A stretch of 64,000 nucleotides of DNA from Candidatus Omnitrophota bacterium (GTDB lineage Bacteria; Omnitrophota; Gorgyraeia; Gygaellales; Profunditerraquicolaceae): positions 140,298 through 204,297 of the forward strand of contig JAQUOV010000004.1 of NCBI GenBank assembly GCA_028716965.1, given 5' to 3'. Numbering within the stretch: the stretch's first letter is position 1; each line of letters opens with the position of its first letter. A program made the translations under genes and the position numbers. The notes beneath the pieces are model-generated. The model made no database searches, was not told the origin of the DNA, and was given only the letters and a program-made list of their open reading frames with translations. Shown here in pieces: positions 33,891 to 57,259 of the stretch.

Positions 33891-34978
33891 TGTTTTACCA
33901 CCTGCTTTATCCTCTAAGAGATTTTATTTCCGCTTTTAATGTCTTCCGCTATATCACCTTCCGGGCGGCAATGGCCGCTTTAACCGCATTTATACTAAGC
34001 CTTATATTTGGGCCTGTGCTTATCAGGAAATTAAAAACACTTAAGCTCGGGGAGAAGATTAACAAGGCCGACAGCGTTAAGCTTGATGACCTGCACCGTC
34101 ATAAACAGAATACGCCGACGATGGGGGGGATCCTTATACTGGGTACGGTTATAATCTCAACCCTGCTTTGGGCAGATATTTCCAATCATTGCATCTGGAT
34201 TGTTTTATTCAGTACCGTCTGGCTGGGCTTAACCGGGTTCTTTGACGATTATTTAAAGCAGATAAAGAAGAAGGCAGACGGATTGCCGCCAATAGTAAAA
34301 CTCTCAAGCCAGATTATCTTAGGTTTGATACTGGGGATTATCCTTATTCTGGACAGCCAGTATAATGTCAAGCTGGAGATACCTTTTTTAAAGGCAGTTA
34401 ACCTGGATTTGGACGGTTTATATATCCTGTTTGTTATACTGGTGATCGCCGGTTCCTCCAATGCCGTAAATCTTACCGATGGGCTTGACGGCCTGGCTAT
34501 CGGTATTGTAGTGATGGTAGGTATTGCCTTCAGCGTGCTTTGTTACATATCCGGGAACATAAACTTAAGCAATTATCTATTGGTTTCTTACGTTAAAGGC
34601 GCCGGGGAGCTGACTATTTTCTGCGCAAGTATTATTGGTGCCGGCTTGGGTTTTTTATGGTTTAACTGTTACCCTGCCTCAGTCTTTATGGGGGATGTCG
34701 GATCACTGGCTTTAGGCGGGGCTATAGGCACGGTAGCCCTGTTGATTAAGAAAGAAATGCTGCTGATAATCGTAGGAGGTATATTTGTCCTGGAGGCATT
34801 CTCCGTTATCCTGCAGGTGGGTTGTTTTAAACTGACCAAGAAGCGTATTTTTAAAATTGCGCCATTACACCATCATTTCCAGTTTTTGGACTGGCCTGAA
34901 AATAAGGTAATCGTCAGGTTTTGGATTATCGCCGGATTGCTTGCCATGTTTACCTTAGTTACCCTGAAGCTCAGGTAG
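33890..34978 (+). CDS. mraY: Phospho-N-acetylmuramoyl-pentapeptide transferase
   Basis: Polytopic membrane protein with NAVNLTDGLDGLA and other MraY motifs. Confidence 0.95.
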   Translation: MFYHLLYPLRDFISAFNVFRYITFRAAMAALTAFILSLIFGPVLIRKLKTLKLGEKINKADSVKLDDLHRHKQNTPTMGGILILGTVIISTLLWADISNHCIWIVLFSTVWLGLTGFFDDYLKQIKKKADGLPPIVKLSSQIILGLILGIILILDSQYNVKLEIPFLKAVNLDLDGLYILFVILVIAGSSNAVNLTDGLDGLAIGIVVMVGIAFSVLCYISGNINLSNYLLVSYVKGAGELTIFCASIIGAGLGFLWFNCYPASVFMGDVGSLALGGAIGTVALLIKKEMLLIIVGGIFVLEAFSVILQVGCFKLTKKRIFKIAPLHHHFQFLDWPENKVIVRFWIIAGLLAMFTLVTLKLR

Positions 34979-34983
34979 GTTTT

Positions 34984-36261
34984 ATGAACAATACCAAATA
35001 CTTCAAAGGTAAGAATATTACTGTTGTGGGTTTGGCCCGCTCCGGCCTTGCCTGCGCTAATTTATTGCACAGCCTGGGCGCCTGCGTGCGAGTTACGGAT
35101 ATAAACGACAATACCCAAACCAGGGAGTCTGCCGCCGGGCTTTCTTCTAAAGGTATACCCGTTGAGCTTGGGTTGCACAGCGAGGATTTTATCAGGCAGG
35201 CGGAGCTGGTAGTCATTTCTCCCGGGGTGCCTCTTTGCGCGCAGCCGGTGATCTGGGCCAAGGAATTTTCCCGGCCGCTGATAAGTGAAATTGAGTTGGC
35301 AAGCATGCTTTGCCCGGCAGAGATTATTGCCGTAAGCGGTTCTAACGGGAAAACCACGGTCACCACTTTAATCGGCAAGGTCCTGGCGGAATCCGGGAAG
35401 AGGGTTTTTGTGTGCGGCAATATCGGCAACCCGTTTTGCGCGGAGGTAGAAAGAATTAAGCAGGGTGATTTTGTTGTACTTGAGGTAAGTTCGTTCCAGC
35501 TTGAGACGATCAGGGATTTTAAGCCGAAGATCGCAGTGATCCTGAATTTAACGCCCAATCATTTAGACCGCTATAATAATATGCAGGAGTACTTGAATGC
35601 GAAAAAGCGTATCTTTATTAACCAGGACGATAACGACTACCTGGTTTTAAACGCTGACGACCCTTTTTTAGATGCCGCTTCCCTTGGGGCCAAGTCAAAG
35701 ATTGTTTTCTTTAATAAAACAGGGGCCTTCAATCCAAATCAGAACGCGGTAATGGCAGTGGGCAAAATCTTAGGGGTTAAAGCGGAAGATATGCTTGGCG
35801 TTTTTCAGAAGTTCAAAGGTATCCAGCACCGTATGGAGGAGGTAGCGCAGATAAACGGCGTAAGATTTATTAATGATTCCAAGGCCACTACCGCGGATTC
35901 GGCGATCTGGGCGATCAAGAATATTGCCTCCCCCATAATTCTTATAGCCGGAGGCAGGCATAAAGGGATCGCTTACAGCGTGATACTGGAAGCGGCAAGG
36001 AATAAGGTTAAAAAGGCGTTTTTGATCGGCGAGGCCAGGGATATAATTGCCGCTGCTCTTGAGGCAGATTTACCGGTAGAGAAAACAGACAATTTAAATA
36101 TAGCCGTAAAGAAGGCTTATGAACAGGCTGCGCCGGGAGACTGCGTGTTATTCTCTCCCATGTGCTCAAGTTATGATATGTTCAAGGATTATGCGCAGCG
36201 GGGAGAGGCTTTCAAAAAAATGGTATTGGATTTAAGTAAAGGGGCCAGGCCGCATGATTAG
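34984..36261 (+). CDS. murD: UDP-N-acetylmuramoylalanine--D-glutamate ligase
   Basis: GLARSG Rossmann motif and GSNGKTT P-loop. Start placed at the ATG (MNNTKYF) within the longer ORF 34921..36261. Confidence 0.9.
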   Translation: MNNTKYFKGKNITVVGLARSGLACANLLHSLGACVRVTDINDNTQTRESAAGLSSKGIPVELGLHSEDFIRQAELVVISPGVPLCAQPVIWAKEFSRPLISEIELASMLCPAEIIAVSGSNGKTTVTTLIGKVLAESGKRVFVCGNIGNPFCAEVERIKQGDFVVLEVSSFQLETIRDFKPKIAVILNLTPNHLDRYNNMQEYLNAKKRIFINQDDNDYLVLNADDPFLDAASLGAKSKIVFFNKTGAFNPNQNAVMAVGKILGVKAEDMLGVFQKFKGIQHRMEEVAQINGVRFINDSKATTADSAIWAIKNIASPIILIAGGRHKGIAYSVILEAARNKVKKAFLIGEARDIIAAALEADLPVEKTDNLNIAVKKAYEQAAPGDCVLFSPMCSSYDMFKDYAQRGEAFKKMVLDLSKGARPHD

Positions 36262-37348
36262 GAGGACACGCATAAATTTGATTACTATCTCAACCGTGCT
36301 TGTCTGTGTTGGGATAGTAATGATTTACAGTTCTTCCAGTATTTATGCCTGGGAGAGATACGGAGACAGTTTTTATTTCCTGAAGCGGCATTTAGCCTTC
36401 CTGGTGGTAGGGTTGGTATTTACATTTCTGGCGATGGTCATTGACTACCGCTTATTCCGCAGGCACGCCCGCCTCATGTTCTGGGTTGCTTTCGCCTTGC
36501 TGGTATTAGTGCTTATCCCGGGATTGGGCAGGGAGGTCTCGGGCGCAAGGCGCTGGTTCAGGTTTAAATTCATCAGTTTTCAGCCTTCAGAATTTGCTAA
36601 TTTGGCGCTGGTTATTTATATAGCTGATTTTGTCTGCCGGAAAGGGGAACAGATTAAGACGCTGTTTAAAGGTTTTATCCCGCCGATATGCGCGCTGGGG
36701 TCAGTCTCTTTGCTCATACTCTTGCAGCCGGATTTGGGCACGACTATTGCTTTGGGCAGCGTAGTCCTGATTATGCTTTATATCGCCGGCGTAAGGGTGC
36801 AGTATATTTTAAGCCTGATACTCTGCAGCCTGCCGATGGTTTATCTCTTGATTTTCAGCGTGCCTTACCGCCGGGCCAGGATCCTGGCATTTCTAAACCC
36901 GTGGCTTGACCCTAAAGGCAGCGGTTTCCAGATCATCCAATCGCAAATTGCCATCGGTTCAGGCGGTTTATTCGGAGTAGGATTGGGCCATTCCCAGCAG
37001 AAGCTTTTTTATCTCCCCGCCGCGCATACCGATTTTATTTTCTCAATTATCGGCGAAGAGCTCGGCTTGTTCGGCACTCTTGGGATAATTGCGTTGTTTA
37101 TGATTTTTATCCGCCAGGGGCTTAGGATTATGAAAAACGCCCAGGATAAATTTGGATATTTTCTTGCCCTGGGGCTGGTTTTGATGATTTCTCTTAAGGC
37201 GATCGTCAATATCGGCGTCTCCTGCGGGGTTTTTCCGACTAAGGGGCTGCCTCTGCCGTTTATCAGCTACGGAGGTTCTTCGCTGATATTTGACATGGTC
37301 AGCTTAGGCATATTGATTAACATCGCCCGTTCCGGAGAATACCCATAA
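36254..37348 (+). CDS. ftsW: Peptidoglycan glycosyltransferase FtsW (SEDS family)
   Basis: Polytopic SEDS protein within the dcw cluster. Confidence 0.85.
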   Translation: MIRRTRINLITISTVLVCVGIVMIYSSSSIYAWERYGDSFYFLKRHLAFLVVGLVFTFLAMVIDYRLFRRHARLMFWVAFALLVLVLIPGLGREVSGARRWFRFKFISFQPSEFANLALVIYIADFVCRKGEQIKTLFKGFIPPICALGSVSLLILLQPDLGTTIALGSVVLIMLYIAGVRVQYILSLILCSLPMVYLLIFSVPYRRARILAFLNPWLDPKGSGFQIIQSQIAIGSGGLFGVGLGHSQQKLFYLPAAHTDFIFSIIGEELGLFGTLGIIALFMIFIRQGLRIMKNAQDKFGYFLALGLVLMISLKAIVNIGVSCGVFPTKGLPLPFISYGGSSLIFDMVSLGILINIARSGEYP

Positions 37349-38427
37349 TGCGTGTTTTACTGGTTACCGGCTCAAGCGGAGGGCATATCTTCCCCGCAAT
37401 GGCTTTAATGGAGCGCCTTAAGGCTGCTTGTGCCGATGTGCTGATGGTCTTGCCAAAAAAGAATAGCGGGAGTAAAATTGCAAGCGGACCGGAAAAGGTA
37501 AAATATATCCACGGCTCCAAGTTGGGTTTAAAATCAGGCAGCAAGAATATAATCGGCGCGTATTTTTTCCTTTTGGGGGCCTGGGAAGGCTTGCGCGCTA
37601 TAATTGCATTCAGGCCAGATGTTGTCGTTGGTTTCGGCAGCTTAGATACGGTTGCTTTGTTGTTTTGGGCATGGCTATTCAGGATAAAGACCGTAATCCA
37701 CGAACAGAATGTCTCACCCGGCAGGGCAAACCGGCTATTGGCTAAATTTGCGGACAAGGTGGCGGTATCATTTGCTCAAACGGGCGATTATTTCAATGTT
37801 TCTCCGGGGAAGATTGTTTTAACCGGTAATCCTCTGCGTAAAGGATTAGTCAGGACAGACAGGAAGCAGGCCCTGGATTTCTTTGGTTTCAAAGAAGGAA
37901 AATTTAACATACTGGTTATGGGCGGCAGCCAGGGCTCGCATAAATTAAATACTGTTTGTTCTGCGGCGCTATCTGGTTATCAGAAAAGAGATGATTTGCA
38001 GCTGGTGCATATTGCCGGGGATATGGACTTTGCGATGTTAAAACAGGCTTATGCGCAAGCCGGCATCGCGCATAAAGTTTTCAGTTTCTTCCCTGATATG
38101 CAGTATGCTTACAGTATGGCGGACCTGGTAATCTGCCGCGCGGGAGCGACCACGATTGCCGAGCTGGGGAGATTCGCAGTGCCTGCTTTATTAATCCCGT
38201 ACCCTTATGCCTACGCGCATCAGTTAGAAAACGCAAAGGTGCTTGAGGAGTCGGGTGCAGCTTTGATTGTCAGGGATGAGGAACTGTGCGTTGATAAAAT
38301 AGGATGCAGCATACGTAAGCTTATGGCTGAGCCCCAGAAATTAGAAGCCATGCGCCAGGCACATTCCCGCGCACAGCTTAAAGACGCCGCTTGCCTGCTT
38401 GCCGAGGAAGTCTTAAATTTGAATTGA
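37348..38427 (+). CDS. murG: UDP-N-acetylglucosamine--N-acetylmuramyl-(pentapeptide) pyrophosphoryl-undecaprenol N-acetylglucosamine transferase
   Basis: GT28 family with GGSxG and GGS glycine motifs. Confidence 0.9.
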   Translation: MRVLLVTGSSGGHIFPAMALMERLKAACADVLMVLPKKNSGSKIASGPEKVKYIHGSKLGLKSGSKNIIGAYFFLLGAWEGLRAIIAFRPDVVVGFGSLDTVALLFWAWLFRIKTVIHEQNVSPGRANRLLAKFADKVAVSFAQTGDYFNVSPGKIVLTGNPLRKGLVRTDRKQALDFFGFKEGKFNILVMGGSQGSHKLNTVCSAALSGYQKRDDLQLVHIAGDMDFAMLKQAYAQAGIAHKVFSFFPDMQYAYSMADLVICRAGATTIAELGRFAVPALLIPYPYAYAHQLENAKVLEESGAALIVRDEELCVDKIGCSIRKLMAEPQKLEAMRQAHSRAQLKDAACLLAEEVLNLN

Positions 38428-39200
38428 TGATAAACTGCTTGAGGTTACTGTTTATATTTTTGTTTTTGCCGCTGTCTCTTTTGGCAGAGGAGCAGCCCTG
38501 GCAGGTCTTTAAAAGCACGCATTTCCTTGTTTTTTATAAAGGCGCTAAAGAACCCCAGCTTAATGAGTTAACCGAAAGGGCCGAGGAGTATTATAATAAG
38601 ATTACCGATGATCTGGGTTTTGCCCGTTTTAACTTCTGGACCTGGGATGACCGGGCAAAGATATATTTGTCCGACAGCCAGGAAGAATACAGACAGTTGA
38701 CCGGCGACCCGGACTGGTCTGCGGGACATGCCCAGGCAGGCAGCAAACTTATCTATACATTTATTACTGCCCCGGGGTTCCTGGATAATGTCCTCGCCCA
38801 TGAAATGGCGCATATTATTTTCAGGGAGATGGTGGGATTTAATAACCCCGCTGTACCGCTTTGGCTTGATGAAGGGGTTGCATCCTTCCAGGAAAAAAAG
38901 TTCTCTTTTGTTAAGGCGGATTTAGCTGATAGAATAAGGCAGGGTGATTTCTTAAGCCTGGAAGACCTGGGTAAAGTTGATGTGGCCAATTTAACAGAGA
39001 CAGGCAGGGCAGAGTTGTTTTATGCGGAGTCATTCAGCCTGGTGCGGTATTTAATTGATACATTCGGCAAAGACAGGTTCGTACTTTTTTGCCAGAACCT
39101 GCGGGACTATAAAGACCTGCGCAGGGCTTTAGCGCTTACATATTCTTTTGGCAGCCTGGCGGAGTTTGAAAGCTCCTGGAAAAAATATATTCTTCAATGA
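38427..39200 (+). CDS. Secreted HExxH zinc-metallopeptidase-like protein (hypothetical) inserted in the dcw cluster
   Basis: Signal peptide (MINCLRLLFIFLFLPLSLLA) and HEMAH (HExxH) motif. No recognisable family otherwise. Start chosen at the internal ATG of ORF 38391..39200. Confidence 0.5.
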   Translation: MINCLRLLFIFLFLPLSLLAEEQPWQVFKSTHFLVFYKGAKEPQLNELTERAEEYYNKITDDLGFARFNFWTWDDRAKIYLSDSQEEYRQLTGDPDWSAGHAQAGSKLIYTFITAPGFLDNVLAHEMAHIIFREMVGFNNPAVPLWLDEGVASFQEKKFSFVKADLADRIRQGDFLSLEDLGKVDVANLTETGRAELFYAESFSLVRYLIDTFGKDRFVLFCQNLRDYKDLRRALALTYSFGSLAEFESSWKKYILQ

Positions 39201-40555
39201 ACGGATACTACCATTTCATAGGGATCGGCGGGATAGGGATGAGCGGGGTGGCGCACCTGATGCTTAAGGCGGGGGTCCCGGTCAGCGGTTCGGATTTGAA
39301 GCAGAGCCGGGTTACCGAGGAGCTCAAAAGGCTTGGCGCCAGGATATATATCGGCCATAATGCTGAAAATATAGACGGCCAAAGCGCCGTAGTTTATTCT
39401 TCAGCGATAAAAGAGGATAACCCCGAGATACTCCAAGCCAGGATCATGGGTATCCCGCTGCTTAAGAGGGCAGAGGCCCTGGCTTTGCTTATGCGCCAGA
39501 AGACCGCTATAGCTGTTGCCGGCAGCCATGGCAAGACTACTACCGCTTCGTTGATCTCTTATATGCTGCTTGAGGCAGGGCTTTGCCCGACGGCAGCCAT
39601 CGGCGGGATACTCAAGAATATTGATACCAACGCCTGTTTGGGCAGCGGCGAGTTTTTCGTAGCGGAGGCAGACGAATCAGACGGCTCATTCCTATGTTAT
39701 CAGCCCAAGTACTCCGTAATTACCAATATTGATTACGAGCATATGGATTATTACCATAATCTTGAGAATGAATTAAATGCTTTCAAGAATTTTCTAAAAT
39801 GCACTCAGCCGGGAGGCTGCGTTTTTGCCTGTTCAGACGACTCCAACCTTAAGGGGTTGTTTTCGGATTATAAAGAAAGAGTTGTTTTCTTCGGCTTGAA
39901 TGAACCTGCCGATATATGCGCCAGGAATATTGAACTTCGCGGTCTTACTTCGGACTTTGACTGTTATTCCAAAGGCAAATTTATCTGCCGGTTTCATCTG
40001 GCCCTGGGAGGAAGGCACAATATTTCTAATGCCCTGGCGGTTATCGGCCTGGGCCTTGAGCTGGGTATTGATTTAGCGCATATCCGCAGGACTTTGGAAG
40101 GATACAAAGGCGCAGGCCGCAGGCTGGAGATAAAATTTAAAAACGATAAATACCTGGTCCTGGATGATTACGCGCACCACCCCTCGGAAATAAAAGCCAC
40201 CCTGGCGGCGGTGGCTAATTTAAATGCCGGGCGCTTGATCGTAGTGTTCCAGCCGCACCGTTATAGCCGCACGCAGCTGCTTTTAAATGATTTTGCAGGT
40301 TCTTTTGAGCATGCCGATTACCTGATTGTTACGGATATTTATGCTGCCAGCGAGAAGCCGATAGACGGCATAGACGCTGCGGCATTGTTAAAAAAGATAA
40401 AGCAATACCAGCCTAAGAAGCAGGCGGTATATATGGATAAAGAAGCAATAACGGAGTTTCTTCTGCGTTTTATGCAAAGCGGCGACCTGGTAATTACTTT
40501 AGGCGCCGGGGATATCGTGAGGACCGCCGATGTTTTGGCCGAAAAGCTTAAATAA
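39197..40555 (+). CDS. murC: UDP-N-acetylmuramate--L-alanine ligase
   Basis: IGIGGIGMSG and GSHGKTTT Mur ligase motifs. Confidence 0.95.
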   Translation: MNGYYHFIGIGGIGMSGVAHLMLKAGVPVSGSDLKQSRVTEELKRLGARIYIGHNAENIDGQSAVVYSSAIKEDNPEILQARIMGIPLLKRAEALALLMRQKTAIAVAGSHGKTTTASLISYMLLEAGLCPTAAIGGILKNIDTNACLGSGEFFVAEADESDGSFLCYQPKYSVITNIDYEHMDYYHNLENELNAFKNFLKCTQPGGCVFACSDDSNLKGLFSDYKERVVFFGLNEPADICARNIELRGLTSDFDCYSKGKFICRFHLALGGRHNISNALAVIGLGLELGIDLAHIRRTLEGYKGAGRRLEIKFKNDKYLVLDDYAHHPSEIKATLAAVANLNAGRLIVVFQPHRYSRTQLLLNDFAGSFEHADYLIVTDIYAASEKPIDGIDAAALLKKIKQYQPKKQAVYMDKEAITEFLLRFMQSGDLVITLGAGDIVRTADVLAEKLK

Positions 40556-41411
40556 AAGAATAAAAACCGGAATAAAACTGGCCGCTTTAACAAGCTTTAA
40601 AGTCGGAGGCGCGGCAAAGTTTTTCTTTGAGGCGGAGAATATTAAAGAATTGCAGGAGGTATTGATTTTCGCCGGGCGCGCGGGGATCCCGGTCTTTATA
40701 TTAGGCGCAGGCAGTAATATTTTAGTCAGCGATGCGGGATTGGACGCTTTAGTGATCAAGCTGGGAGGAGAATTCTCAAAAATATTGTATAAGGATGGAA
40801 CTTGCCTGGAAGCAGGAGGCGCCGTTAAGCTAAGCCAGCTTATTTTGGGCGCAAAAGCCAATGGTTTATCCGGTCTGGAGTTTCTTGCGGGGATCCCCGG
40901 TACATTGGGAGGGGCCCTGGCAGGCAATGCCGGTTCCTGGGGCAGGTCAATAGGCTCTTTTGTGCAAGAGGTGCGCGTTTTAGATTACAGCGGTAAGCCC
41001 AGGTCCTTTAATACAAAGAAACTGAAGTTTTCGTATCGCAAGTCAAACTTGAATAAATATATTATCATCTCCTCCAGGCTTAAATTGCGCAAGGCAGATA
41101 AAGATGCGATTGCTTCAAAGATCAGAAAATACCTTTCAGCGAAGAAAAGGGCCCAGGGGGATAGCCTGCCCAGCGCAGGGTGTATTTTCAAGAATCCCGG
41201 GAAGCATCCTGCCGGAAAACTTATTGATGCCTGCGGTTTAAAAGGGGGCGCAAAAGGCGGGGCAGTGATCTCTAAAGCCCACGCGAATTTTATCCTGAAT
41301 AAAGGAAGGGCTTCCAGCGGGGATATCCAGTTTCTCATGCACTTGATGCAAAAAAAAGTGAAAGAAAAATTCAAAATTGATTTGCAGCCTGAAATAATAA
41401 TATGGAGATGA
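40530..41411 (+). CDS. murB: UDP-N-acetylenolpyruvoylglucosamine reductase
   Basis: FAD-binding domain with the GGGSN motif and a MurB C-terminal domain. Confidence 0.85.
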   Translation: MFWPKSLNKRIKTGIKLAALTSFKVGGAAKFFFEAENIKELQEVLIFAGRAGIPVFILGAGSNILVSDAGLDALVIKLGGEFSKILYKDGTCLEAGGAVKLSQLILGAKANGLSGLEFLAGIPGTLGGALAGNAGSWGRSIGSFVQEVRVLDYSGKPRSFNTKKLKFSYRKSNLNKYIIISSRLKLRKADKDAIASKIRKYLSAKKRAQGDSLPSAGCIFKNPGKHPAGKLIDACGLKGGAKGGAVISKAHANFILNKGRASSGDIQFLMHLMQKKVKEKFKIDLQPEIIIWR

Positions 41412-42346
41412 AAGAGTTCGGCAGGGTAGGGGTTTTAATGGGCGGCCCTTCTTCGGAGAGGGAGATATCCTTTAAAAGCGGCAAGGCAGTTTTATCGGCG
41501 CTTAGGGATTCGGGGGTAGAAGCGGCGGGTATTGATATTGTCACCGATAATAGAGAAGATAATATTCGCCTGCTGGATAGTTATAATCTGGACTGCGCCT
41601 TTATCGCCCTGCACGGACGCTTTGGCGAGGATGGCGCTATCCAGGAGATCTTGGAGCAGCTAAACTTACCTTATACCGGCTCCGGGGTAAATGCCAGCCG
41701 CCTGGCCATGGATAAGATAGGGGCATTAAGGATTTTTGAGGCGGGCAAGCTTTATGTACCCAGGTCACAATCCCTGGGAAGATCAGCTTATAATAAAAAC
41801 AAGGATTTTAAAAACGAGCTGGGATTCCCGCTTGTGGTAAAGCCGGCCAACCACGGTTCCAGTATCGGTCTTTCAATTGTGGAGTTTGAAGAAGCGATGC
41901 CGGCGGCTATAAGCCTGGCTTTCCAGTTTGATGAACGGATAGTTATTGAAGAATATATCCCGGGCAGGGAATTGACGGTCGGCGTTTTAGATGAAACGGC
42001 CCTTCCGGTAATTGAGATTGTGCCTAAACATAAATTCTTTGATTTTGAAGCAAAGTACCAGGCAGGGCTGACGGATTATATCGTCCCGGCTGCTTTGGAT
42101 GAAAAGGCTGCCCGTAAGGTTCAGCAGGCAGCCTTGGAGGCACATAAGCTTTTAGGCTGTTTCGGCTGTTCGCGCACGGATATCATATTAAGCAGGGATA
42201 ACCTGTCTTATGTGCTGGAGACCAATACCATACCCGGGATGACCTCCACCAGCCTGCTGCCTAAAGCCGCCAGGATCATAGGTATTGATTTTAACCGGTT
42301 GTGCCTTAAACTATTGGAATTAGCTTATGAAAAAGAAAAAGTTTAA
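41402..42346 (+). CDS. ddl: D-alanine--D-alanine ligase
   Basis: ATP-grasp fold with Ddl N- and C-terminal motifs. Confidence 0.9.
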   Translation: MEMKEFGRVGVLMGGPSSEREISFKSGKAVLSALRDSGVEAAGIDIVTDNREDNIRLLDSYNLDCAFIALHGRFGEDGAIQEILEQLNLPYTGSGVNASRLAMDKIGALRIFEAGKLYVPRSQSLGRSAYNKNKDFKNELGFPLVVKPANHGSSIGLSIVEFEEAMPAAISLAFQFDERIVIEEYIPGRELTVGVLDETALPVIEIVPKHKFFDFEAKYQAGLTDYIVPAALDEKAARKVQQAALEAHKLLGCFGCSRTDIILSRDNLSYVLETNTIPGMTSTSLLPKAARIIGIDFNRLCLKLLELAYEKEKV

Positions 42347-43115
42347 ATTGCCCCTGGCCGCTATTTTTATCCCGGTAATAATTTTACTTGCCATCTCTTT
42401 ATTATTGGGATATATTTGGAAAGTCTTGACTACCTCTGATTTTTTTTCGGTCAAACAGGTCTTTGTCAGGAATTCCGCTGAATCATTTGAGTATTTAAAA
42501 GGCAGGAACATGTTTGACCTGGAACTGAATAATGAATCGGCAAAGGCTTTATCGCATTGCCCGGATTGCCATAGGGTAAGGTTTTTAAGGATACTGCCGA
42601 ATTACCTGATTGTAGATTTTGTAAAGAGGCAGCCGGTTGCTCTGGTTAAATTTTATAAAAACTACGCCGTAGACCAGCAGGGGGTATTTTTTAACCCTAC
42701 AGGTTCTGAAGAAGAGGCGGCTTTACCCGTAATTTATGGCCTGGAGACAAAAATATTCGGGCCAAAACCGGGAGTAAAATATAACCGGCCGGAGCTTGAT
42801 TTAGCCTTGAATATCATTAAAGATTTTAAGGCGAATAGAGCATTGCGCACTTTTACCCTGAAGAGAATCGATGTCTCAAGCCTGCAGAGCGCGGGATTAT
42901 TCGTGCTCTTGCCTAAACAGGCTGTTGATTATACCAAGCGCATCCCGCAGGTGGAGTGGCTGGGTTTTGAGGTGCGTATCGGAGAAGGCAATATTAAGCA
43001 GAAGCTGATGATTTTAGGCGGCTTGCTTATGCAGCCGGATAAAGAGTGGGTAAATATCAAATATATCGACCTTAGGTTTAACGAACCGGTGATAAAACTG
43101 GACAATAAGAATTGA
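42327..43115 (+). CDS. ftsQ: Cell division protein FtsQ (POTRA domain)
   Basis: Bitopic membrane protein between ddl and ftsA. Confidence 0.7.
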   Translation: MKKKKFKLPLAAIFIPVIILLAISLLLGYIWKVLTTSDFFSVKQVFVRNSAESFEYLKGRNMFDLELNNESAKALSHCPDCHRVRFLRILPNYLIVDFVKRQPVALVKFYKNYAVDQQGVFFNPTGSEEEAALPVIYGLETKIFGPKPGVKYNRPELDLALNIIKDFKANRALRTFTLKRIDVSSLQSAGLFVLLPKQAVDYTKRIPQVEWLGFEVRIGEGNIKQKLMILGGLLMQPDKEWVNIKYIDLRFNEPVIKLDNKN

Positions 43116-43157: not shown

Positions 43158-44414
43158 ATGTTGAATAATAACTATATATGCGCGGTAGATATCGGTTCAA
43201 ATAAAATTGCAGCCAGCCTTGCGCAGATAAGAAAAAACCGCATAGAGAATATTTTTTTTGATACTATTCTTTCCGGCGGCGTTAAAGAAGGGGTGATTGT
43301 TGACGCGCTGGAGTTGATCTCCTGCCTGAGCAAGGTCCTGAAGAGCTTAAAGGCTAAATCCGGTTTAAAAATTAAATTTATCCATACTAATTTCTCAGGC
43401 AAGGGGATATCCACCAGGCACAGCCACGCAATTATCCCTTTGGCAGAAAGAGGAAACAAGGTAATTACCTCTACGGATATAGCTAATGCCAATGAGCAGG
43501 CGCGAATCCTCGGTTCAAGCCTGGAGGAGGAGATTATACATGTAATTCCGTCCAGCTATTCCATTGATTCCAAGAATAATGTAATCAACCCTGTTGGCCT
43601 ATATAGCCATAAGCTGGAGGCGGATTTATTCCTGATCTGTGCCAAGCTTTCTTCTTTACAAAGCTTAAGCCGCGCTGTCAGCCAGGCAGGGTATGAGATA
43701 AGGGACCTTTCTTTTTCCGGGCTGGCGACAAGCAAAGCGGTTTTTGGTAAAGAAGAAAAAAAAGGGTTAAGCGTATTTTGCGATATCGGCAGCGATATCA
43801 CGGACCTGCTTATTTTTAAAGACGGGCTGTTGCAGGATATACAGGTCCTGCCGTTAGGCGGCAATAGCTTGACGCTCCAGCTTTCTGAAGGCCTGAAGAT
43901 CAATTGTGAACTGGCCGAGGACATTAAGCGCTCCTATGGAGTTATCGGCGATGCCGGTACTATCCCCGAAGACAAAGAAATACTGGTGAAGAAAGATGAA
44001 TTTTACAAGCCCATAAAATACAGGCATGTGGCCCAAATGGCTACTGATTCCAGCCGCTTAATCTGCACGCAGATCAAGGAGGTCGTGGAGAAAAAGGTCG
44101 CGCTTCATGAAATTGACCATTTCGTGATGGCCGGCAGGACCCTGTTGAGCGACGGCTTCATTGAGATGATGGAGAATGTAATGGGTATACAGGTAAAGAT
44201 CGGCCGTATCCGCAACGCGCAGGTCTCCTCTTTATTAAAGGAGCACAGCGAGTTGTCCGGTCAGAAATATCTGACCTATTTGACCTGTATCGGCATGGCC
44301 TGCGAAGACCTGGAGAATAAAACCGTAGGAAGCGCCTCTTTAGTCAGGCCTGCCCAAAACCTGCTGGCCAGGTTAATAAACCGTTTTAAAGAAGTTTACC
44401 AGGAATATTTCTAA
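43158..44414 (+). CDS. ftsA: Cell division protein FtsA
   Basis: Actin/ASKHA fold (VDIGSNKI...DIGSDITDL). Confidence 0.9.
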   Translation: MLNNNYICAVDIGSNKIAASLAQIRKNRIENIFFDTILSGGVKEGVIVDALELISCLSKVLKSLKAKSGLKIKFIHTNFSGKGISTRHSHAIIPLAERGNKVITSTDIANANEQARILGSSLEEEIIHVIPSSYSIDSKNNVINPVGLYSHKLEADLFLICAKLSSLQSLSRAVSQAGYEIRDLSFSGLATSKAVFGKEEKKGLSVFCDIGSDITDLLIFKDGLLQDIQVLPLGGNSLTLQLSEGLKINCELAEDIKRSYGVIGDAGTIPEDKEILVKKDEFYKPIKYRHVAQMATDSSRLICTQIKEVVEKKVALHEIDHFVMAGRTLLSDGFIEMMENVMGIQVKIGRIRNAQVSSLLKEHSELSGQKYLTYLTCIGMACEDLENKTVGSASLVRPAQNLLARLINRFKEVYQEYF

Positions 44415-44482
44415 AAATTAGGGGGTGCTCCTATTTCTTTTGAATCTTAATGATGAAGGAATAGAAGCGCCCCCTAATTCCA

Positions 44483-44511
44483 TTGACCCTCTTAAGTTTA
44501 TTGTGTATAAT
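44483..44511 (+). promoter_or_regulatory. Promoter upstream of yggS (TTGACC-17-TATAAT)
   Basis: TTGACC at 44483-44488, TATAAT at 44506-44511. Preceded by a long imperfect hairpin at 44418-44477. Confidence 0.55.
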
Positions 44512-44525
44512 ACATACTTTAGCTT

Positions 44526-45176
44526 ATGATTAAAGAGAATATCTTAAGGGTTAATCAGCGTATCGCCGCTGTTTGCGACAGGATTAAAACTGACCCGCAG
44601 AAGATTATACTGGTTTGCGTAACTAAGGGCAGGCCGGTTGAGCAGATACGGGAAGCAGTTAATTCCGGCCTTAAATATCTCGGAGAAAACAGGGTGCAGG
44701 AGGCCAAGGGTAAATATATGCATATACCCGAGGCGCAGTGGCAGATGGTCGGGCATCTGCAGATGAATAAAGTAAAAGATGCTTTAAAGATATTTAACCT
44801 GATCCATTCCGTAGACAGCATTGCGCTGGCGCAGGAGATCAATAAACAGGCAGTTAAAATCAATAAAATCCAGGATATCCTGCTTGAGGTTAAAACATCT
44901 CCTGAAGTTACGAAATCCGGCTTTAAACCTGAAGCGCTCCCGGATGCCTGCGGGGCGATTTTGAGCCTGGGCAATCTTAGGGTTAAAGGGTTGATGACGA
45001 TCGCACCTGCCGCGGATAAAGCTGAAGATACCCGGCAGTATTTTGCTAAACTCAAGGCATTACGCGACAAGCTTAATCCTTCCTGGGTACTTTCCATGGG
45101 GATGACGGATGATTTTGAGGTAGCGATAGAAGAGGGCGCAGATATAATCCGGCTGGGAAGGGCAATTTTTGGGTAA
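44526..45176 (+). CDS. yggS: PLP homeostasis protein YggS/PLPBP
   Basis: Alanine-racemase N-terminal-like TIM barrel (…VTKGRPVE…GENRVQE…). Confidence 0.85.
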   Translation: MIKENILRVNQRIAAVCDRIKTDPQKIILVCVTKGRPVEQIREAVNSGLKYLGENRVQEAKGKYMHIPEAQWQMVGHLQMNKVKDALKIFNLIHSVDSIALAQEINKQAVKINKIQDILLEVKTSPEVTKSGFKPEALPDACGAILSLGNLRVKGLMTIAPAADKAEDTRQYFAKLKALRDKLNPSWVLSMGMTDDFEVAIEEGADIIRLGRAIFG

Positions 45177-45181
45177 GGTAT

Positions 45182-46021
45182 ATGCCAGAGACAAAGAAGA
45201 GGTTGGGTATAATTGGTTTTGGGAATATGGGAAGCAGTATCGCCGAAGGCGCGCGTTCCCTGTTTGAAATATCCGTATTTGATAAAGATAAACAGAAGCT
45301 GGCCGATAGCCGGGGGCTAAAGACCGAAACTCAAATTTCCGGTTTAATGAACAACTCCGATGCCGTAATGCTGGCGGTAAAACCGCAGGATTTTGATGCG
45401 TTACTTGTTGAGATCAAGCCTTATATCCAGGGTAAATTAATACTTAGCATTGCCGCCGGGATAACTACGGGTTACATTGAAAAGGTTTTGAATGGAGCCA
45501 GGGTGGTCAGGGCAATGCCGAATCTGGCGGTAAAGATATTAGCGGCAGAGACCGGCCTATCCAGAGGCAAATATGCCAAAGAGGAGGACCTGGATTTGGC
45601 GAAAAAAATATTCGCCCAGCTGGGTAAAATCTGGGTAGTAGAAGAAGGGATGCTTGATTCCATCACCGCCATTTCAGGAAGCGGGCCGGCTTATATTCTT
45701 TATGATATGGAAATTAATAAATTAGACCCTTTGAATATTCCGGTTGAGAAAAAAAACGATTATATAAAATGGTTAAAACAGGCAGCATTGGAAGTCGGGT
45801 TTGACCCTAAAATGGCTTTTGATCTGGCTGTCTGCACAACTGCTTCCAGCATACAGCTTTCGGCGCAAGCAGGAAATTCTCCGGCGCAGTTGCGTAAAAT
45901 GATCACCTCTGCCGGAGGCACGACGGAGGCAGCGATTAAAGTTTTGTCTATGAATGGTTCATGGGCTGAGGCGGCGCAGGCTGCCAGGAAACGCGCAAAA
46001 GAATTATCAAGGGAGGAATAG
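45182..46021 (+). CDS. proC: Pyrroline-5-carboxylate reductase
   Basis: GIIGFGNMGSSI Rossmann motif and a C-terminal P5CR dimerisation domain. Confidence 0.85.
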   Translation: MPETKKRLGIIGFGNMGSSIAEGARSLFEISVFDKDKQKLADSRGLKTETQISGLMNNSDAVMLAVKPQDFDALLVEIKPYIQGKLILSIAAGITTGYIEKVLNGARVVRAMPNLAVKILAAETGLSRGKYAKEEDLDLAKKIFAQLGKIWVVEEGMLDSITAISGSGPAYILYDMEINKLDPLNIPVEKKNDYIKWLKQAALEVGFDPKMAFDLAVCTTASSIQLSAQAGNSPAQLRKMITSAGGTTEAAIKVLSMNGSWAEAAQAARKRAKELSREE

Positions 46022-46023
46022 CT

Positions 46024-46884
46024 ATGCCGCGAATCGGGATTATCGGTGGAAGTGGATTGTATAAAATCGAGGGGATGGAGGTTATAAAAAAGGTAAGCCT
46101 GAAGACTCCTTTCGGCAGGCCTTCGGACAGCCTTACCATCGGCAGGCTGGAGGGCAAGGAGGTAGTTTTTCTGCCGCGCCACGGGGTGGGGCACCGCATA
46201 TCCCCGAGCGCAATAAATTACCGCGCAAATATTTTCGCGATGAAGAAATTAGATGTGGAACGGATCATCTCGGTGACTGCCTGCGGCAGCTTAAGGGAGG
46301 AGATGAAGCCCCTGGATTTCGTGGTAGTGGACCAGTTTGTGGACCGCACCAACCATGCCCGGAATATGAGTTTTTTTGACCAGGGGATCGTCAGCCATAT
46401 TGTTTTCAGCCATCCGGTCTGCCCGGACCTTTGCGCGCAGATATATTCGGCCGGAAAATCCCTGGATTTGACCATGCACAAAAGCGGAACATATATTAAT
46501 ATGGAAGGCCCGCAATTTTCAACTTTGGCAGAGAGCAGGCTTTACCGCAGCTGGGGTATGGATGTGATCGGGATGACCAATATGGCCGAAGCCAGGCTTA
46601 GCCGCGAAGCAGAGATATGCTATTCTACGCTGGCCTGTATTACGGACTATGATTGCTGGCACCCGGAGCATGCAAGCGTAACTTTGGATATGGTCATCAG
46701 CAACCTGCAGAAGAATGTGGAAAATGCCAAGAAGGTTATTTGCAAAGTGATCAAGGGGATAAACCAGGAACGCAGGTGCAGCTGCGGCAAGGCGCTGGAG
46801 TTTGCCATTGTCACAGATAAAAAACTTATCCCCTCAAGGGTGAAAAGGGACTTAAATATAATTATAGGAAAATACATAAAATGA
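46024..46884 (+). CDS. mtnP: S-methyl-5'-thioadenosine phosphorylase
   Basis: IGIIGGSGLY start and PNP/MTAP family fold. Confidence 0.8.
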   Translation: MPRIGIIGGSGLYKIEGMEVIKKVSLKTPFGRPSDSLTIGRLEGKEVVFLPRHGVGHRISPSAINYRANIFAMKKLDVERIISVTACGSLREEMKPLDFVVVDQFVDRTNHARNMSFFDQGIVSHIVFSHPVCPDLCAQIYSAGKSLDLTMHKSGTYINMEGPQFSTLAESRLYRSWGMDVIGMTNMAEARLSREAEICYSTLACITDYDCWHPEHASVTLDMVISNLQKNVENAKKVICKVIKGINQERRCSCGKALEFAIVTDKKLIPSRVKRDLNIIIGKYIK

Positions 46885-49664
46885 AACCCGAGAACAATCC
46901 GGCAGGCTCCGAATATAAACATACGTTGAACCTGCCTAAAACAGATTTTCCTATGAAGGCGGACCTGCCTAAGCGGGAACCGCTGATGCTGGAGCATTGG
47001 TCTAAATTGGATCTTTACGGGCTTATCCGTAAGAAACCGGTAAAAGGCAAATATGTCCTTCATGACGGCCCTCCTTATGCCAATGGGGATATCCATCTCG
47101 GCCATGCTTTAAATAAAACCTTAAAAGATATCGTTGTGAAATATAAAACCATGCAAGGGTATGATTCGCCGTATGTGCCCGGTTGGGACTGCCATGGCCT
47201 GCCTATTGAGCACCAATTGTTCAAAGAATTAAAAATAGCCAAGCACCAGATCCCGCAGCTTGAGTTCAGGAAGAAGGCACATGATTATGCGATGAAGCAT
47301 GTGGATGGCCAAAGGGAGCAGTTTAAGCGCCTGGGAGTATTCGGGGATTGGGAAAACCCGTATTTGACTCTAAGCCACGAATACGAAGAGGCGATTATCA
47401 GATCTTTTAATGATTTATATAAGAAAGGGTTTATCCAGCGCGGCCTTAAGCCGGTAAATTGGTGTTTTAAATGCGAAACTGCCTTGGCAGAGGCAGAGGT
47501 GGAATATGAAAATCATGTTTCTCCTTCGGTATTTGTAAAATTTAAGGCAAAAGAAGGAAAAGGGTTGTTGAAAGATACTTATTTTGTGATTTGGACCACT
47601 ACCCCATGGACCTTAATTGCCAATGTGGCCGTCTCTGTCCATCCGGAGTTCAGCTATTCTTATATTAAATCGGGTAAGGGGAATTTGATTATTGCCGATG
47701 TGCGCCTTGCGGTGTTGGAGCAGATGGGCATTGATAAATATGAAGTGATAAAGAATTTTAAAGGCAAGGACCTGGAGGGTATTATTTATGACCATCCGTT
47801 CGGTTTGCGCTCGGGGAAAGTAGTCCTGGCAGATTATGTTTCCGCCGAGGAGGGGACAGGTTTGGTGCATACGGCTCCCGGCCACGGCGCGGAGGATTAC
47901 CAGACAGGATTAAAATACGGCCTGGAGATTGTGATGCCGGTTGACGCAAGGGGTAAATTTAATTCCAGTTCCGGAGAATTTGCCGGCCAGAATGTCTATG
48001 ATGCAAATAAGGCGATCGTCGAAAAATTGCAGTCCATAGGGGCCTTGCTTTTAGAAGAGAAGATAGCTCACTCTTATCCGCATTGCTGGCGCTGCAAGCA
48101 TCCGGTAATTTTCAGGGCGACCAAACAGTGGTTCCTGAATATTGACCACAATGGTTTGCGTAAGAGCGTGCTTAAAGCGATAAAAGAAGATGTGCATTGG
48201 ATACCCGGGGCCGGGCAGGAGAGGATTTCATCAATGGTGGAATTGCGCCCGGACTGGTGCCTTTCACGCCAGAGATACTGGGGCGTACCGCTGCCGGCTT
48301 TGGTTTGCCAGGATTGCAAAGAAGAGTTTTTTAATACCGAGGTAATTGAGAAGTTCGCGCAATTTGCTGCAACGGAAGGATCTGACAGCTGGTTCAGCCG
48401 CAAGATAAATGATTTTATTCCCAAAGGCTTAACTTGCCCGGAATGCAAAAAAGGAAAAACATTTTCTAAAGGCGCGGATATCCTGGATGTCTGGTTTGAT
48501 TCCGGGGTAAGCGCTCAGGCAGTATTGAAAAAAAGAAAAGAATTAGGGGGGATCCCCGCGCAATTATACCTGGAAGGTTCTGACCAGCACAGGGGGTGGT
48601 TTCAGTCATCAATTATCCCGGCAATGGCAATTGACGGCAAGGCGCCTTTTGAAAATGTGCTTACGCATGGTTTTGTGGTTGACGGCGAAGGCAGGAAAAT
48701 GTCCAAGTCTTGCGGCAACGTCATCTCTCCGTTTGAGATCATCAAGGATTATGGCGCGGATATCTTAAGGATGTGGGTGGCCTCAAGCGATTACAATGAG
48801 GATATCCGTATCTCCAAGGAGATCCTTACCCGGCTTTCGGAGGCTTACCGCAAGATCCGCAACACCGCTAAATTTATTTTAAGCAACCTTTATGATTTTA
48901 ACCCGGATAAAGACAGGGTAGCTTACGATAATTTAAGAGCGATAGATAAATGGGTGCTTCAGGAGACAAAATTTGCATTAATGCAGGCAAGGAACGCCTA
49001 TGATTCTTTCGAATTCCACAAGGCTTATAAAACTATCTATGATCTTTGTAATGAACAGCTGTCAATGTATTATTTGGATATGGTTAAGGGTCGTCTCTAT
49101 ACTTATGGAGCTAAGACTACAGAAAGGCGTGCTACACAAACAGCAATTTTTGAAGCATTGAATATGATTGTGCGGATGATTGCCCCAATTTTTGTATTTA
49201 CCGCAGAGGAGATTTGGCAGCAAATGCCCCAAAATAAAGGGTCGGAAAATATCACAAGTGTGCATCTTTTAGAATGGCCTGAACCTGAGACTCTGGCTCC
49301 CGAAGATGATATCAACTTGCGTTTGGGGGTAGTAATATTGCGGATTCCTCTGGTAGCTAAAGCATTGGAAGAGTTGCGCGGCAAAGGGCAAATCGGCAGT
49401 TCTTTTGATGCCAGAATAAAACTGTTGACAAAAAGCCCAGAACGTTATACATTCTTACAAAGCTTAAATACCCAGCTCTGTGAGATTTTTAAGGTTTCAC
49501 AGGTTGAGGTAGTAAAGGATGATCAGCTTAGTGAAGAAATAAAAATAGAAGTAGCTAAGGCTGACGGTGTTAAATGCCCGCGCTGCTGGAACTACTCATT
49601 AAAGGTAGGAAGCAACCCGCAGCATCCTTTGATCTGCGATAATTGCCTTAAAGCGGTCTGTTAG
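46881..49664 (+). CDS. ileS: Isoleucine--tRNA ligase
   Basis: HIGH (HLGHAL) and KMSKS motifs, a CP1 editing domain and a C-terminal zinc finger. Confidence 0.95.
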   Translation: MKPENNPAGSEYKHTLNLPKTDFPMKADLPKREPLMLEHWSKLDLYGLIRKKPVKGKYVLHDGPPYANGDIHLGHALNKTLKDIVVKYKTMQGYDSPYVPGWDCHGLPIEHQLFKELKIAKHQIPQLEFRKKAHDYAMKHVDGQREQFKRLGVFGDWENPYLTLSHEYEEAIIRSFNDLYKKGFIQRGLKPVNWCFKCETALAEAEVEYENHVSPSVFVKFKAKEGKGLLKDTYFVIWTTTPWTLIANVAVSVHPEFSYSYIKSGKGNLIIADVRLAVLEQMGIDKYEVIKNFKGKDLEGIIYDHPFGLRSGKVVLADYVSAEEGTGLVHTAPGHGAEDYQTGLKYGLEIVMPVDARGKFNSSSGEFAGQNVYDANKAIVEKLQSIGALLLEEKIAHSYPHCWRCKHPVIFRATKQWFLNIDHNGLRKSVLKAIKEDVHWIPGAGQERISSMVELRPDWCLSRQRYWGVPLPALVCQDCKEEFFNTEVIEKFAQFAATEGSDSWFSRKINDFIPKGLTCPECKKGKTFSKGADILDVWFDSGVSAQAVLKKRKELGGIPAQLYLEGSDQHRGWFQSSIIPAMAIDGKAPFENVLTHGFVVDGEGRKMSKSCGNVISPFEIIKDYGADILRMWVASSDYNEDIRISKEILTRLSEAYRKIRNTAKFILSNLYDFNPDKDRVAYDNLRAIDKWVLQETKFALMQARNAYDSFEFHKAYKTIYDLCNEQLSMYYLDMVKGRLYTYGAKTTERRATQTAIFEALNMIVRMIAPIFVFTAEEIWQQMPQNKGSENITSVHLLEWPEPETLAPEDDINLRLGVVILRIPLVAKALEELRGKGQIGSSFDARIKLLTKSPERYTFLQSLNTQLCEIFKVSQVEVVKDDQLSEEIKIEVAKADGVKCPRCWNYSLKVGSNPQHPLICDNCLKAVC

Positions 49665-52495: not shown

Positions 52496-53344
52496 ATGGA
52501 TTTCAAAGGGCCTATCTTGAAATTTATTTTGATTGGTTTGACTGTTATCTCTTTAGTTTTTGCCGGGGTATTTGTACACTTGTACCAGAATGAACGCCTG
52601 AAAGCTGAAAAGCTGCAATCCCAGGTTGATGAGTTAACCGCCCGGGAACGCGTACTTGAGGATAAGCTTGAGGCTTCCAATAAAAATGTTGCGGAGTTGA
52701 TCTCTAAACTGCAGGAAAGCAAGGACCGGATTGCCAGTATAGGAGAAGAACTGAATAAGGAAAAGTCAACGCGGCAGGACGCGCTGAAGGAGCTGGAGCA
52801 GATTAAGACAGAGATTGAGCAGCAGAAATTCTCGCGCCAGGATTTAGAGAGCAAACTTGGAAAGGCTTTAGCAGAGGGCAATAAGTTGAAAGAACAGCTG
52901 CAGATTATTAACCGGCAAAAAGATGAGCTTGAGGTAAAGCTCAAAGATTTAGAATCCGCTTCTGCCGGCGTAGAGCTGGGAAAGGTAGTAGTAAACAGCG
53001 AGTCTGTTGAGCCTTATCGGGAGGGGAATGCTTCGGAGGCAAAAAAGACGGATTCTTCTTCTCCTGTTTCGCTAAAGGATAAAAAACAGGAAGGCCTTTC
53101 CAAGAACAATCTTTTGGAAGGCAGGATCACGGTAGTAAATAAAGAATATAATTTTGTAGTGATAAACTTAGGTGAAAAAGAAGGCCTGAATAAAGGAGAC
53201 CAATTTTCCGTATATCATGAGGGCAAAATGATCGGTGATATAACAGTGGAAAAGGTCCATGAATCAATGTCTGCCGCGGGTTTTGCAGCAGACCTAAAAA
53301 ATACAATCAAAGAGAACGATATAGTAATACAAAAGGTCAAATGA
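52496..53344 (+). CDS. Membrane-anchored coiled-coil protein with a C-terminal beta-rich domain (hypothetical)
   Basis: N-terminal TM helix, then about 130 aa of heptad-rich E/K/L/Q sequence, then a C-terminal GRITVVNKEYNFVVINLG...GDQFSV domain. Strong GGAGG ribosome-binding site. Confidence 0.55.
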   Translation: MDFKGPILKFILIGLTVISLVFAGVFVHLYQNERLKAEKLQSQVDELTARERVLEDKLEASNKNVAELISKLQESKDRIASIGEELNKEKSTRQDALKELEQIKTEIEQQKFSRQDLESKLGKALAEGNKLKEQLQIINRQKDELEVKLKDLESASAGVELGKVVVNSESVEPYREGNASEAKKTDSSSPVSLKDKKQEGLSKNNLLEGRITVVNKEYNFVVINLGEKEGLNKGDQFSVYHEGKMIGDITVEKVHESMSAAGFAADLKNTIKENDIVIQKVK

Positions 53345-55797: not shown

Positions 55798-55802
55798 TTT
55801 CC

Positions 55803-55990: not shown

Positions 55991-56011
55991 AATCATTCTT
56001 CCTAGCTAAAT

Positions 56012-57252: not shown

Positions 57253-57259
57253 TATTCTT

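Follow-up and report, generated by a model that had tools for sequence, protein, structure and literature searches.

The dcw cluster and its end at ftsA

In a Candidatus Omnitrophota bacterium (assembly GCA_028716965.1), the division and cell wall (dcw) gene cluster ends at ftsA, and ftsZ, in canonical clusters the terminal gene 3' of ftsA, does not follow it. Here we describe this locus, which lies in a stretch of 64,000 nucleotides (the window) of the 204.7-kb contig JAQUOV010000004.1, together with its counterparts in relatives, and weigh the possible fates of the missing gene. The evidence indicates that the end of the operon at ftsA is very probably due to loss of ftsZ in an ancestor of the whole phylum, the gene having been neither moved nor removed by mis-assembly.

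Gene identities in the window were assigned by Pfam and NCBIfam family scans of the open reading frames (ORFs), and all genes of the cluster lie on the + strand. The cluster begins with mraZ (27697-28134; MraZ, E = 1.8e-41) and rsmH (or mraW, 28135-29037; Methyltransf_5, E = 2.2e-102), followed by an ORF of 122 amino acids (aa) in the ftsL position (29043-29411), which has an N-terminal hydrophobic segment and is called ftsL by position only, having matched nothing in Pfam or NCBIfam, FtsL models included. The PBP3-type transpeptidase gene ftsI (29435-31138; Transpeptidase and PBP_dimer), murE (31135-32550) and murF (32529-33890; both Mur ligase domains), mraY (33890-34978; Glycos_transf_4/MraY_sig1), murD (34921-36261; Mur ligase domains, MurD-like_N), ftsW (36254-37348; FTSW_RODA_SPOVE, E = 3.6e-114) and murG (37348-38427; Glyco_tran_28 N and C domains) come next. 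Beyond an extra metallopeptidase gene, described below, the cluster continues with murC (39197-40555), murB (40530-41411) and ddl (41402-42346), all three assigned by Pfam, and closes with ftsQ (42327-43115; FtsQ_DivIB_C, E = 5.3e-6, above the gathering score) and ftsA (43158-44414; TIGR01174 equivalog, Pfam SHS2_FTSA and FtsA). The ORF listing and family scans agree with the colinear order mraZ-rsmH-ftsL-ftsI-murE-murF-mraY-murD-ftsW-murG-murC-murB-ddl-ftsQ-ftsA given in an earlier note on this DNA, in which the metallopeptidase gene between murG and murC had been overlooked.

On the far side of a 111-bp spacer (44415-44525), and on the same strand, lie yggS (44526-45176; pyridoxal phosphate-binding YggS/YlmE family, TIGR00044, 168.8 bits against a cut-off of 106.25) and a proC-like pyrroline-5-carboxylate reductase gene (45182-46021; P5CR_dimer and F420_oxidored; 183.9 bits on TIGR00112, slightly below the cut-off of 196.75), the two genes that the earlier note had placed here. 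They are followed by mtnP (methylthioadenosine phosphorylase; TIGR01694, 310 bits against a cut-off of 274.85) and ileS (tRNA-synt_1, E = 1.3e-137), together at 46024-49664, and downstream of ileS by a DksA-type zinc-finger gene, lgt and rluD. When the six-frame translation of the 64-kb window was searched by tblastn, the E. coli and B. subtilis FtsZ queries gave a best E value of 0.19 and no FtsZ-like sequence.

Gene order downstream of ftsA in relatives

With 100% identity, the window FtsA matches MDD5561197.1 (Candidatus Omnitrophota bacterium). A search for relatives gave 915 matches overall; among the matches listed, at least 120 cluster representatives have 75-87% identity, and those with a label are all Omnitrophica/Omnitrophota except one named "bacterium". 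Loci were collected from 38 GTDB species representatives, the best 80 metagenome loci, Logan, JGI and ENA assemblies, and deeper representatives taken from an exhaustive representative search, with 6-10 kb of flanking sequence on each side. The metagenome scan was made with a 10-sequence alignment and returned mostly relatives at 56-86% identity.

Comparison with close relatives, as the earlier note had proposed, revealed the same end of the cluster throughout. The order ftsQ-ftsA-yggS-proC-mtnP-ileS is found in the 38 GTDB species representatives (73-88% FtsA identity, one of them on a 922,655-bp contig) and in the best 80 metagenome loci (56-86%), and the longer order murG-peptidase-murC-murB-ddl-ftsQ-ftsA-yggS-proC-mtnP-ileS is seen in Logan, JGI and ENA relatives with FtsA identities of 85% and 76%. 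Among deep relatives, those with 47% and 40% identity have yggS-proC-mtnP-ileS after ftsA; the one with 37% has yggS there, on a short contig, and those with 33, 30, 28 and 26% have other genes, never ftsZ. The 26%-identity FtsA is encoded on a complete chromosome of 1,137,816 bp labelled Omnitrophota (CP070655.1).

The total is 130 independent loci, each with an ftsA of Omnitrophota type (26-88% identity); in all of them the cluster ends at this gene and no ftsZ lies within 6-10 kb of it. FtsA is ordinarily encoded between ftsQ and ftsZ; here ftsQ lies directly upstream and no ftsZ lies downstream in any of the 130. When 131 loci (1.52 Mb) were searched by tblastn with three FtsZ queries, the sole match was the non-Omnitrophota control (L050), in which ftsA (FtsA P0264, outside the clade, 24% identity) is followed by a gene for a 365-aa protein with Tubulin and FtsZ_C domains. 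For annotation, a dcw cluster that ends at ftsA is ordinary in Omnitrophota.

The ftsA-yggS junction

The spacer holds two features that had been noted earlier and were recovered by inverted-repeat, folding and motif analyses. The first is a stem-loop (44416-44479, + strand) with 24-nt arms (44416-44439 and 44456-44479) that are 88% complementary and enclose a 16-nt loop. The predicted RNA fold of 44405-44530 has an energy of -44 kcal/mol (z = -7.3), which none of 200 shuffled sequences equalled, and the stem-loop, standing at the operon end, is probably a terminator or a stabiliser of the RNA 3' end. Its sequence is not kept across relatives, some of which have unrelated strong hairpins and others none, with spacers of 49-70 bp in close relatives that lack it. 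Rfam and tRNA scans of the junction found nothing.

The second feature is a sigma-70-like promoter for yggS-proC-mtnP-ileS, TTGACC-17-TATAAT (44483-44511, + strand; 11 of 12 positions matched). Of 80 distinct regions upstream of yggS in relatives, 61 hold a TTGACC-N16-18-TATAAT motif with at least 10 of 12 matches; among 80 shuffled controls, the number is 1. In the window and in relatives the promoter ends 9-25 nt before the yggS start codon, which would imply that the yggS 5' leader is very short or absent.

Because the hairpin is variable and the promoter conserved, the spacer is an ordinary operon end with a promoter and holds no ftsZ remnant. The combination fits an old, settled operon boundary, at which a variable stem-loop would be followed by a conserved sigma-70-type promoter driving the genes from yggS to ileS.

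One explanation of the junction is that two contigs were wrongly joined or binned at the hairpin, and repeats such as the long palindrome lying exactly at this place can indeed cause mis-joins. However, dozens of assemblies, made independently with different assemblers and from different samples, have the same junction, often without a hairpin and with the short spacer of 49-70 bp; GC content and GC skew run unbroken from ftsA into yggS, and the hairpin arm has no second copy within the 64-kb window. An assembly artefact at 44415-44525, which the earlier note had named as a point on which its reading could fail, can be ruled out on the recurrence of the junction, and its probability is close to nil.

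About 15-25% of the loci hold unrelated genes in place of yggS on the 3' side of ftsA, so that this boundary of the operon is settled but permissive. The inserted cargo is unrelated to division and includes a 1717-aa Ser/Thr-kinase-AAA-GAF-histidine-kinase protein, MarC and lysS, a GlmU-like transferase together with GNAT, acyl-CoA dehydrogenase and electron-transfer flavoprotein (ETF), and a TetR regulator accompanied by an OEP-family outer-membrane efflux protein and a patatin-like phospholipase. From insertions lying between ftsA and yggS (L019 11356-16509; L035 11371-19022; L011 11482-16403; L022 11297-11974), the junction appears to be an insertion hotspot. On the chromosome CP070655.1, an 82-aa fragment with a proC-type N-terminal domain stands alone directly after ftsA (L051 7352-7596), and resembles what a decayed yggS-proC block would leave behind.

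Published record of ftsZ in Omnitrophota

The earlier note had judged that a complete absence of ftsZ would be of real interest; phylum-wide absence in Omnitrophota is already published, although poorly known. In the supplement of Seymour et al. 2023 (Nat Microbiol), a study of 421 genomes representing 276 species, ftsZ absence is reported for Omnitrophota, and the single ftsZ case is 89% identical to an archaeal protein. The accessible part of their KEGG Orthology (KO) table holds K03587 to K03590 (ftsI, ftsW, ftsQ and ftsA by standard KEGG numbering) and shows no K03531 (ftsZ), either between K03529 and K03536 or by term search. Pende et al. 2021 (Nat Commun, Fig. 5 legend) place Omnitrophica among the FtsZ-less phyla of the Planctomycetes-Verrucomicrobia-Chlamydiae (PVC) group.

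In both Pende et al. 2021 and Rivas-Marin et al. 2016, a single "Omnitrophica" genome, OLB16, has FtsZ; the four other Omnitrophica genomes in the Supplementary Data of Pende et al. 2021 lack FtsZ, and three of the four keep FtsA. OLB16 is now placed under Candidatus Hinthialibacterota (NCBI), and was therefore rejected as an exception. A 2026 preprint on 176 complete Omnitrophota genomes (bioRxiv 10.64898/2026.06.07.730766) leaves fts genes unmentioned.

The present locus shows the same phenomenon as these surveys (Seymour et al. 2023; Pende et al. 2021), with ftsZ missing and ftsA, ftsQ, ftsW and ftsI kept, and the window adds one more genome to their record. The surveys give presence and absence, without the locus, the ftsA-yggS junction, the extra peptidase or the changes in FtsA.

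Conservation and predicted structure of FtsA

The window FtsA scores 188.8 bits on TIGR01174, narrowly above the cut-off of 175.85, and 119.9 on the E. coli-type model NF007009 (cut-off 409), so that it is not of the E. coli subtype. The FtsA-specific 1C (SHS2) subdomain is present at residues 81-160 (Pfam SHS2_FTSA, E = 4.8e-15). An AlphaFold2 model built from a 94-sequence alignment has a predicted local distance difference test score (pLDDT) of 93.5 and a predicted template modelling score (pTM) of 0.90. In a Foldseek search of the PDB with this model, the top 19 matches were all FtsA (TMq 0.67-0.80, TMt 0.79-0.88) and PilM came next at 0.55-0.63; the best matches, ahead of PilM and MreB, include FtsA 7Q6F (TM 0.80/0.87) and the T. 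maritima FtsA:FtsZ-peptide complex 4A2A (0.77/0.86).

Across 35 species, ftsA has a median identity of 78% and a ratio of nonsynonymous to synonymous substitution rates (dN/dS) of ∼0.06, with dS saturated, and FtsA is more conserved than the products of ddl, murC, ftsQ and ileS. On account of this low ratio and this conservation, ftsA is clearly functional and under strong purifying selection.

A divergent phosphate-2 loop (DIGSDIT as compared with DIGGGT; columns G214 and T215) was considered as a sign of lost ATPase activity. This idea was rejected, as the loop reads DIGEDVT in S. aureus FtsA, a protein that crystallises with ATP.

A C-terminal amphipathic helix is predicted at residues 402-417, with a hydrophobic moment of 0.71 as compared with 0.69 in E. 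coli FtsA, and as modelled it qualifies as the FtsA membrane-targeting helix. The tails read ...LINRFKEVYQEYF in the window and ...WIKRLNSWLRKEF in E. coli, the former ending in ...EVYQEYF. The end ...[IL]Y[QEHR][ED]YF-COOH (window 44402-44414) is common to all Omnitrophota-type FtsAs examined, at 26-100% identity (carriers include P0121, P0125, P0130, P0137, P0158, P0183 and P0219), and is far better kept than the remaining tail, unlike the tails of canonical FtsAs.

Divergence of FtsA subdomain 2B

For a residue-level comparison, 136 FtsAs were aligned with L-INS-i and a neighbour-joining tree was built, in which the Omnitrophota clade comprises 98 sequences and the other 38, hereafter canonical, include E. 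coli FtsA and the control. All ten FtsAs with verified genomic context and no ftsZ neighbour fall inside the clade of 98. In an earlier pairwise comparison (phmmer/hhalign), the E. coli segment "EPRY" containing R300 had come to lie opposite a gap with low confidence; this placement was discarded in favour of the ungapped helix of the 136-sequence alignment.

Three columns of subdomain 2B set the clade apart from canonical FtsAs. At the column of E. coli R300, Arg is present in 36 of 38 canonical FtsAs (0.95) as compared with 8 of 98 in the clade (0.08); at E303, Glu is present in 33 of 38 (0.87) as compared with 18 of 98 (0.18); and at D242, the frequency of Asp drops from 0.97 to 0.05. Canonical FtsAs have 54 columns with at least 80% conservation; ranked by retention in the clade, D242 and R300 take the last two places and E303 is in the bottom eight. 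The window FtsA has Q241, S298 and L301 at the D242, R300 and E303 columns, and so carries neither of the residues (R300 and E303) that presumably hold the FtsZ peptide. The equivalents of all three are retained in S. aureus FtsA.

The R300E substitution in E. coli FtsA reportedly abolishes FtsZ binding. Judged from the alignment, Omnitrophota FtsA seems to have lost its putative FtsZ-docking residues, a pattern that would be expected if the constraint of FtsZ binding had been lifted.

Fate of ftsZ

The earlier note had spoken of a precise loss or relocation of ftsZ. Loss is upheld by the 130 loci and the published surveys; relocation is not, and neither is a recent precise deletion, for the loss is ancient and at the level of the phylum.

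Relocation of ftsZ to another part of the same genome, which would make the locus a mere rearrangement of the dcw cluster, has little probability. It gains some ground from the fact that the window represents 64 kb of a 204.7-kb contig from an incomplete metagenome-assembled genome, and from the retention under strong purifying selection of FtsA, normally the partner of FtsZ. It is also favored by a recent paper (iScience 2025, PMC12283558) that lumps Omnitrophota with FtsZ-containing phyla. However, the surveys of hundreds of Omnitrophota genomes report no native ftsZ (Seymour et al. 2023; Pende et al. 2021), with K03531 missing from the accessible part of the KO table and the sole exception, OLB16, moved to another phylum. 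In addition, no ftsZ lies in the 1.5 Mb around the 130 ftsA genes, and conservation has been lost at the FtsA positions presumed to bind the FtsZ tail, a divergence that argues against a relocated ftsZ insofar as the presumed docking role is correct.

Replacement of FtsZ by a very divergent member of the tubulin/FtsZ superfamily or by an unrelated cytoskeletal protein, on which FtsA would dock through a remodelled 2B subdomain or through the YQEYF tail, is also unlikely, though somewhat less so than relocation. In its favour, the close lineage still shows high conservation of subdomain 2B, the clade-specific ...[IL]Y[QEHR][ED]YF end could bind a partner as well as anchor to the membrane, and the published surveys were sequence-based. 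Against this, the scanned window ORFs of at least 150 aa include no candidate, all belonging to ordinary families except three (3888-4553, 21853-22347 and 52496-53344) that are too short or unrelated, and no conserved gene of unknown family adjoins ftsA in relatives.

Loss of ftsZ in an ancestor of the phylum accounts best for the locus, and several points weigh against it. Absence at the level of the genome rests on the literature and on indirect evidence from FtsA sequences, the window being 64 kb of a 204.7-kb contig. Eight of the 98 clade FtsAs keep Arg at the R300 column (e.g. P0158 and P0169); genomic context was checked for 10 of the 98, and four protein clusters bear an Omnitrophota label. 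We take E. coli R300 and E303 (R301 and E304 in T. maritima) to form salt bridges to the FtsZ C-terminal peptide, and the reading of the 2B columns depends on this assumption. The iScience 2025 article (PMC12283558) groups Omnitrophota with phyla whose dcw genes are "highly conserved", and gives no per-gene data for the phylum.

A possible FtsA-based divisome

Division of walled bacteria without an FtsZ ring is an open problem, which has so far been studied only in Chlamydiae and Planctomycetes, both of which lack FtsA. Omnitrophota, a large and widespread phylum of very small bacteria, combine a full peptidoglycan pathway, an intact dcw cluster and a conserved FtsA with the absence of FtsZ. 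A supplement and a figure legend are the only places where this absence is on record, and in recent papers on PVC division the phylum still counts as FtsZ-containing or uncertain. The new element is the description at the level of the locus and of FtsA, namely the end of the cluster at ftsA, the strong selection on this gene and the unconserved putative docking residues, which together lead from a bare presence/absence entry to a testable hypothesis of an FtsA-based, FtsZ-independent divisome.

By analogy with known systems, we consider it about as probable as its opposite, or slightly less so, that division in these bacteria is independent of FtsZ, with membrane-tethered FtsA filaments as the cytoplasmic scaffold. 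Tethered by the C-terminal helix, the filaments would scaffold FtsQ, the FtsL-like protein, FtsW-FtsI and FtsK, much as MreB does in the elongasome, and MreB-RodZ may contribute to division as in Chlamydia. Genes for all components of such a divisome (ftsA, ftsQ, ftsL-like, ftsW, ftsI, ftsK, rodZ and mreB) are present in the window. A more specific version, an actin-only divisome, is put forward tentatively and with rather less than even confidence: FtsA would have been kept and remodelled after the loss of ftsZ, its FtsZ-tail pocket decaying and a new invariant ...YQEYF motif arising, and FtsA alone would organise FtsQ/L-FtsW/I in the manner of the elongasome. If true, this would be a third FtsZ-less solution, mechanistically distinct from those of Chlamydiae and Planctomycetes, and a natural experiment on what FtsA is capable of without FtsZ.

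Comparison with known division systems

Like the canonical FtsA-FtsZ proto-ring of E. coli and T. maritima (4A2A, 7Q6F), the window system has the FtsA fold with the 1C subdomain, a C-terminal amphipathic helix and a place after ftsQ; it differs in having no gene for the FtsZ partner, and Q241, S298 and L301 at the 2B positions.

In Chlamydiota, division is a polarised budding with septal peptidoglycan, and MreB, RodZ and FtsK are its organisers. The window resembles them in the lack of FtsZ and in the retention of peptidoglycan precursor genes, FtsW/FtsI-type synthases, FtsQ, FtsK, MreB and RodZ. FtsA has been lost in Chlamydiota (Pende et al. 2021; iScience 2025), whereas the window FtsA is kept and strongly conserved, in an intact and colinear dcw cluster.

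Planctomycetota are likewise a PVC-affiliated lineage without FtsZ, and divide by budding or binary fission. They lack FtsA as well, their dcw cluster is fragmented, and in many of them peptidoglycan and division genes are lost or dispensable, whereas the cluster in the window is complete and ordered. Loss of FtsA along with FtsZ, the rule in both of these FtsZ-less groups, has therefore not taken place here.

According to a proposal by Nierhaus et al. 2022 (PMC7613929), the MreB elongasome, in which antiparallel double filaments guide RodA-PBP2, is the divisome's evolutionary sister. The proposed likeness lies in a membrane-bound actin-like filament that would guide a pair of SEDS and class B penicillin-binding proteins without a tubulin ring; as far as Omnitrophota FtsA is concerned, the likeness is purely inferential.

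Other genes and features of the window

The extra gene between murG and murC (38391-39200, + strand) encodes a Peptidase_MA_2 metallopeptidase (PF13485, E = 7.2e-17) with a HEMAH motif and a signal-like N-terminus, and its true start is likely to be the ATG at 38427. The same gene is found in this position in relatives with FtsA identities of 28-85% (L001 5326-6096, L004 5323-6096, L044 1193-1981, L048 1267-2073 and L049 1257-2003), and is missing between murG and murC in one lineage examined (L045). From this distribution, the secreted-looking HExxH metallopeptidase may be a phylum-specific member of the dcw cluster, perhaps a cell-wall hydrolase.

Outside the dcw cluster, the window retains the rest of a Chlamydia-like toolkit, which comprises MreB, RodZ, FtsK, the peptidoglycan synthesis genes and the full mur set. 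ftsK (7623-9812, + strand; Pfam FtsK_4TM/alpha/SpoIIIE/gamma) overlaps by 4 bp with rodZ (9809-10642, + strand; HTH_25 and RodZ_C), and a MiaB-like radical-SAM gene comes next. FtsK and RodZ/MreB are known organisers of FtsZ-less division in Chlamydia, and by this analogy the pairing of ftsK and rodZ may be meaningful. The elongasome genes mreB-mreC-mreD-mrdA-rodA form a cluster of their own (54724-60075, + strand; assigned by Pfam, MreB with 526 bits on NF010539).

Four ORFs have no convincing family (52496-53344, 3888-4553, 21853-22347 and 29043-29411, the last being the ORF in the ftsL position). The first, of 282 aa, lies between rluD and aroA and is present in relatives, with weak matches to FlgT_C or CCDC39 only.

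In their supplement, Seymour et al. 2023 report that Omnitrophota also lack ftsY (the signal recognition particle receptor) and ribosomal protein L30. That a whole lineage should lack ftsY would be odd, and may be explained by divergence beyond the reach of the marker hidden Markov model.

Among the window ORFs of at least 150 aa, 59 of 64 are on the + strand, and GC skew is positive in all 2-kb bins of 1-64000, the cumulative skew climbing steadily. This uniform orientation and skew point to a window that lies within one replichore, with a strong leading-strand gene bias.

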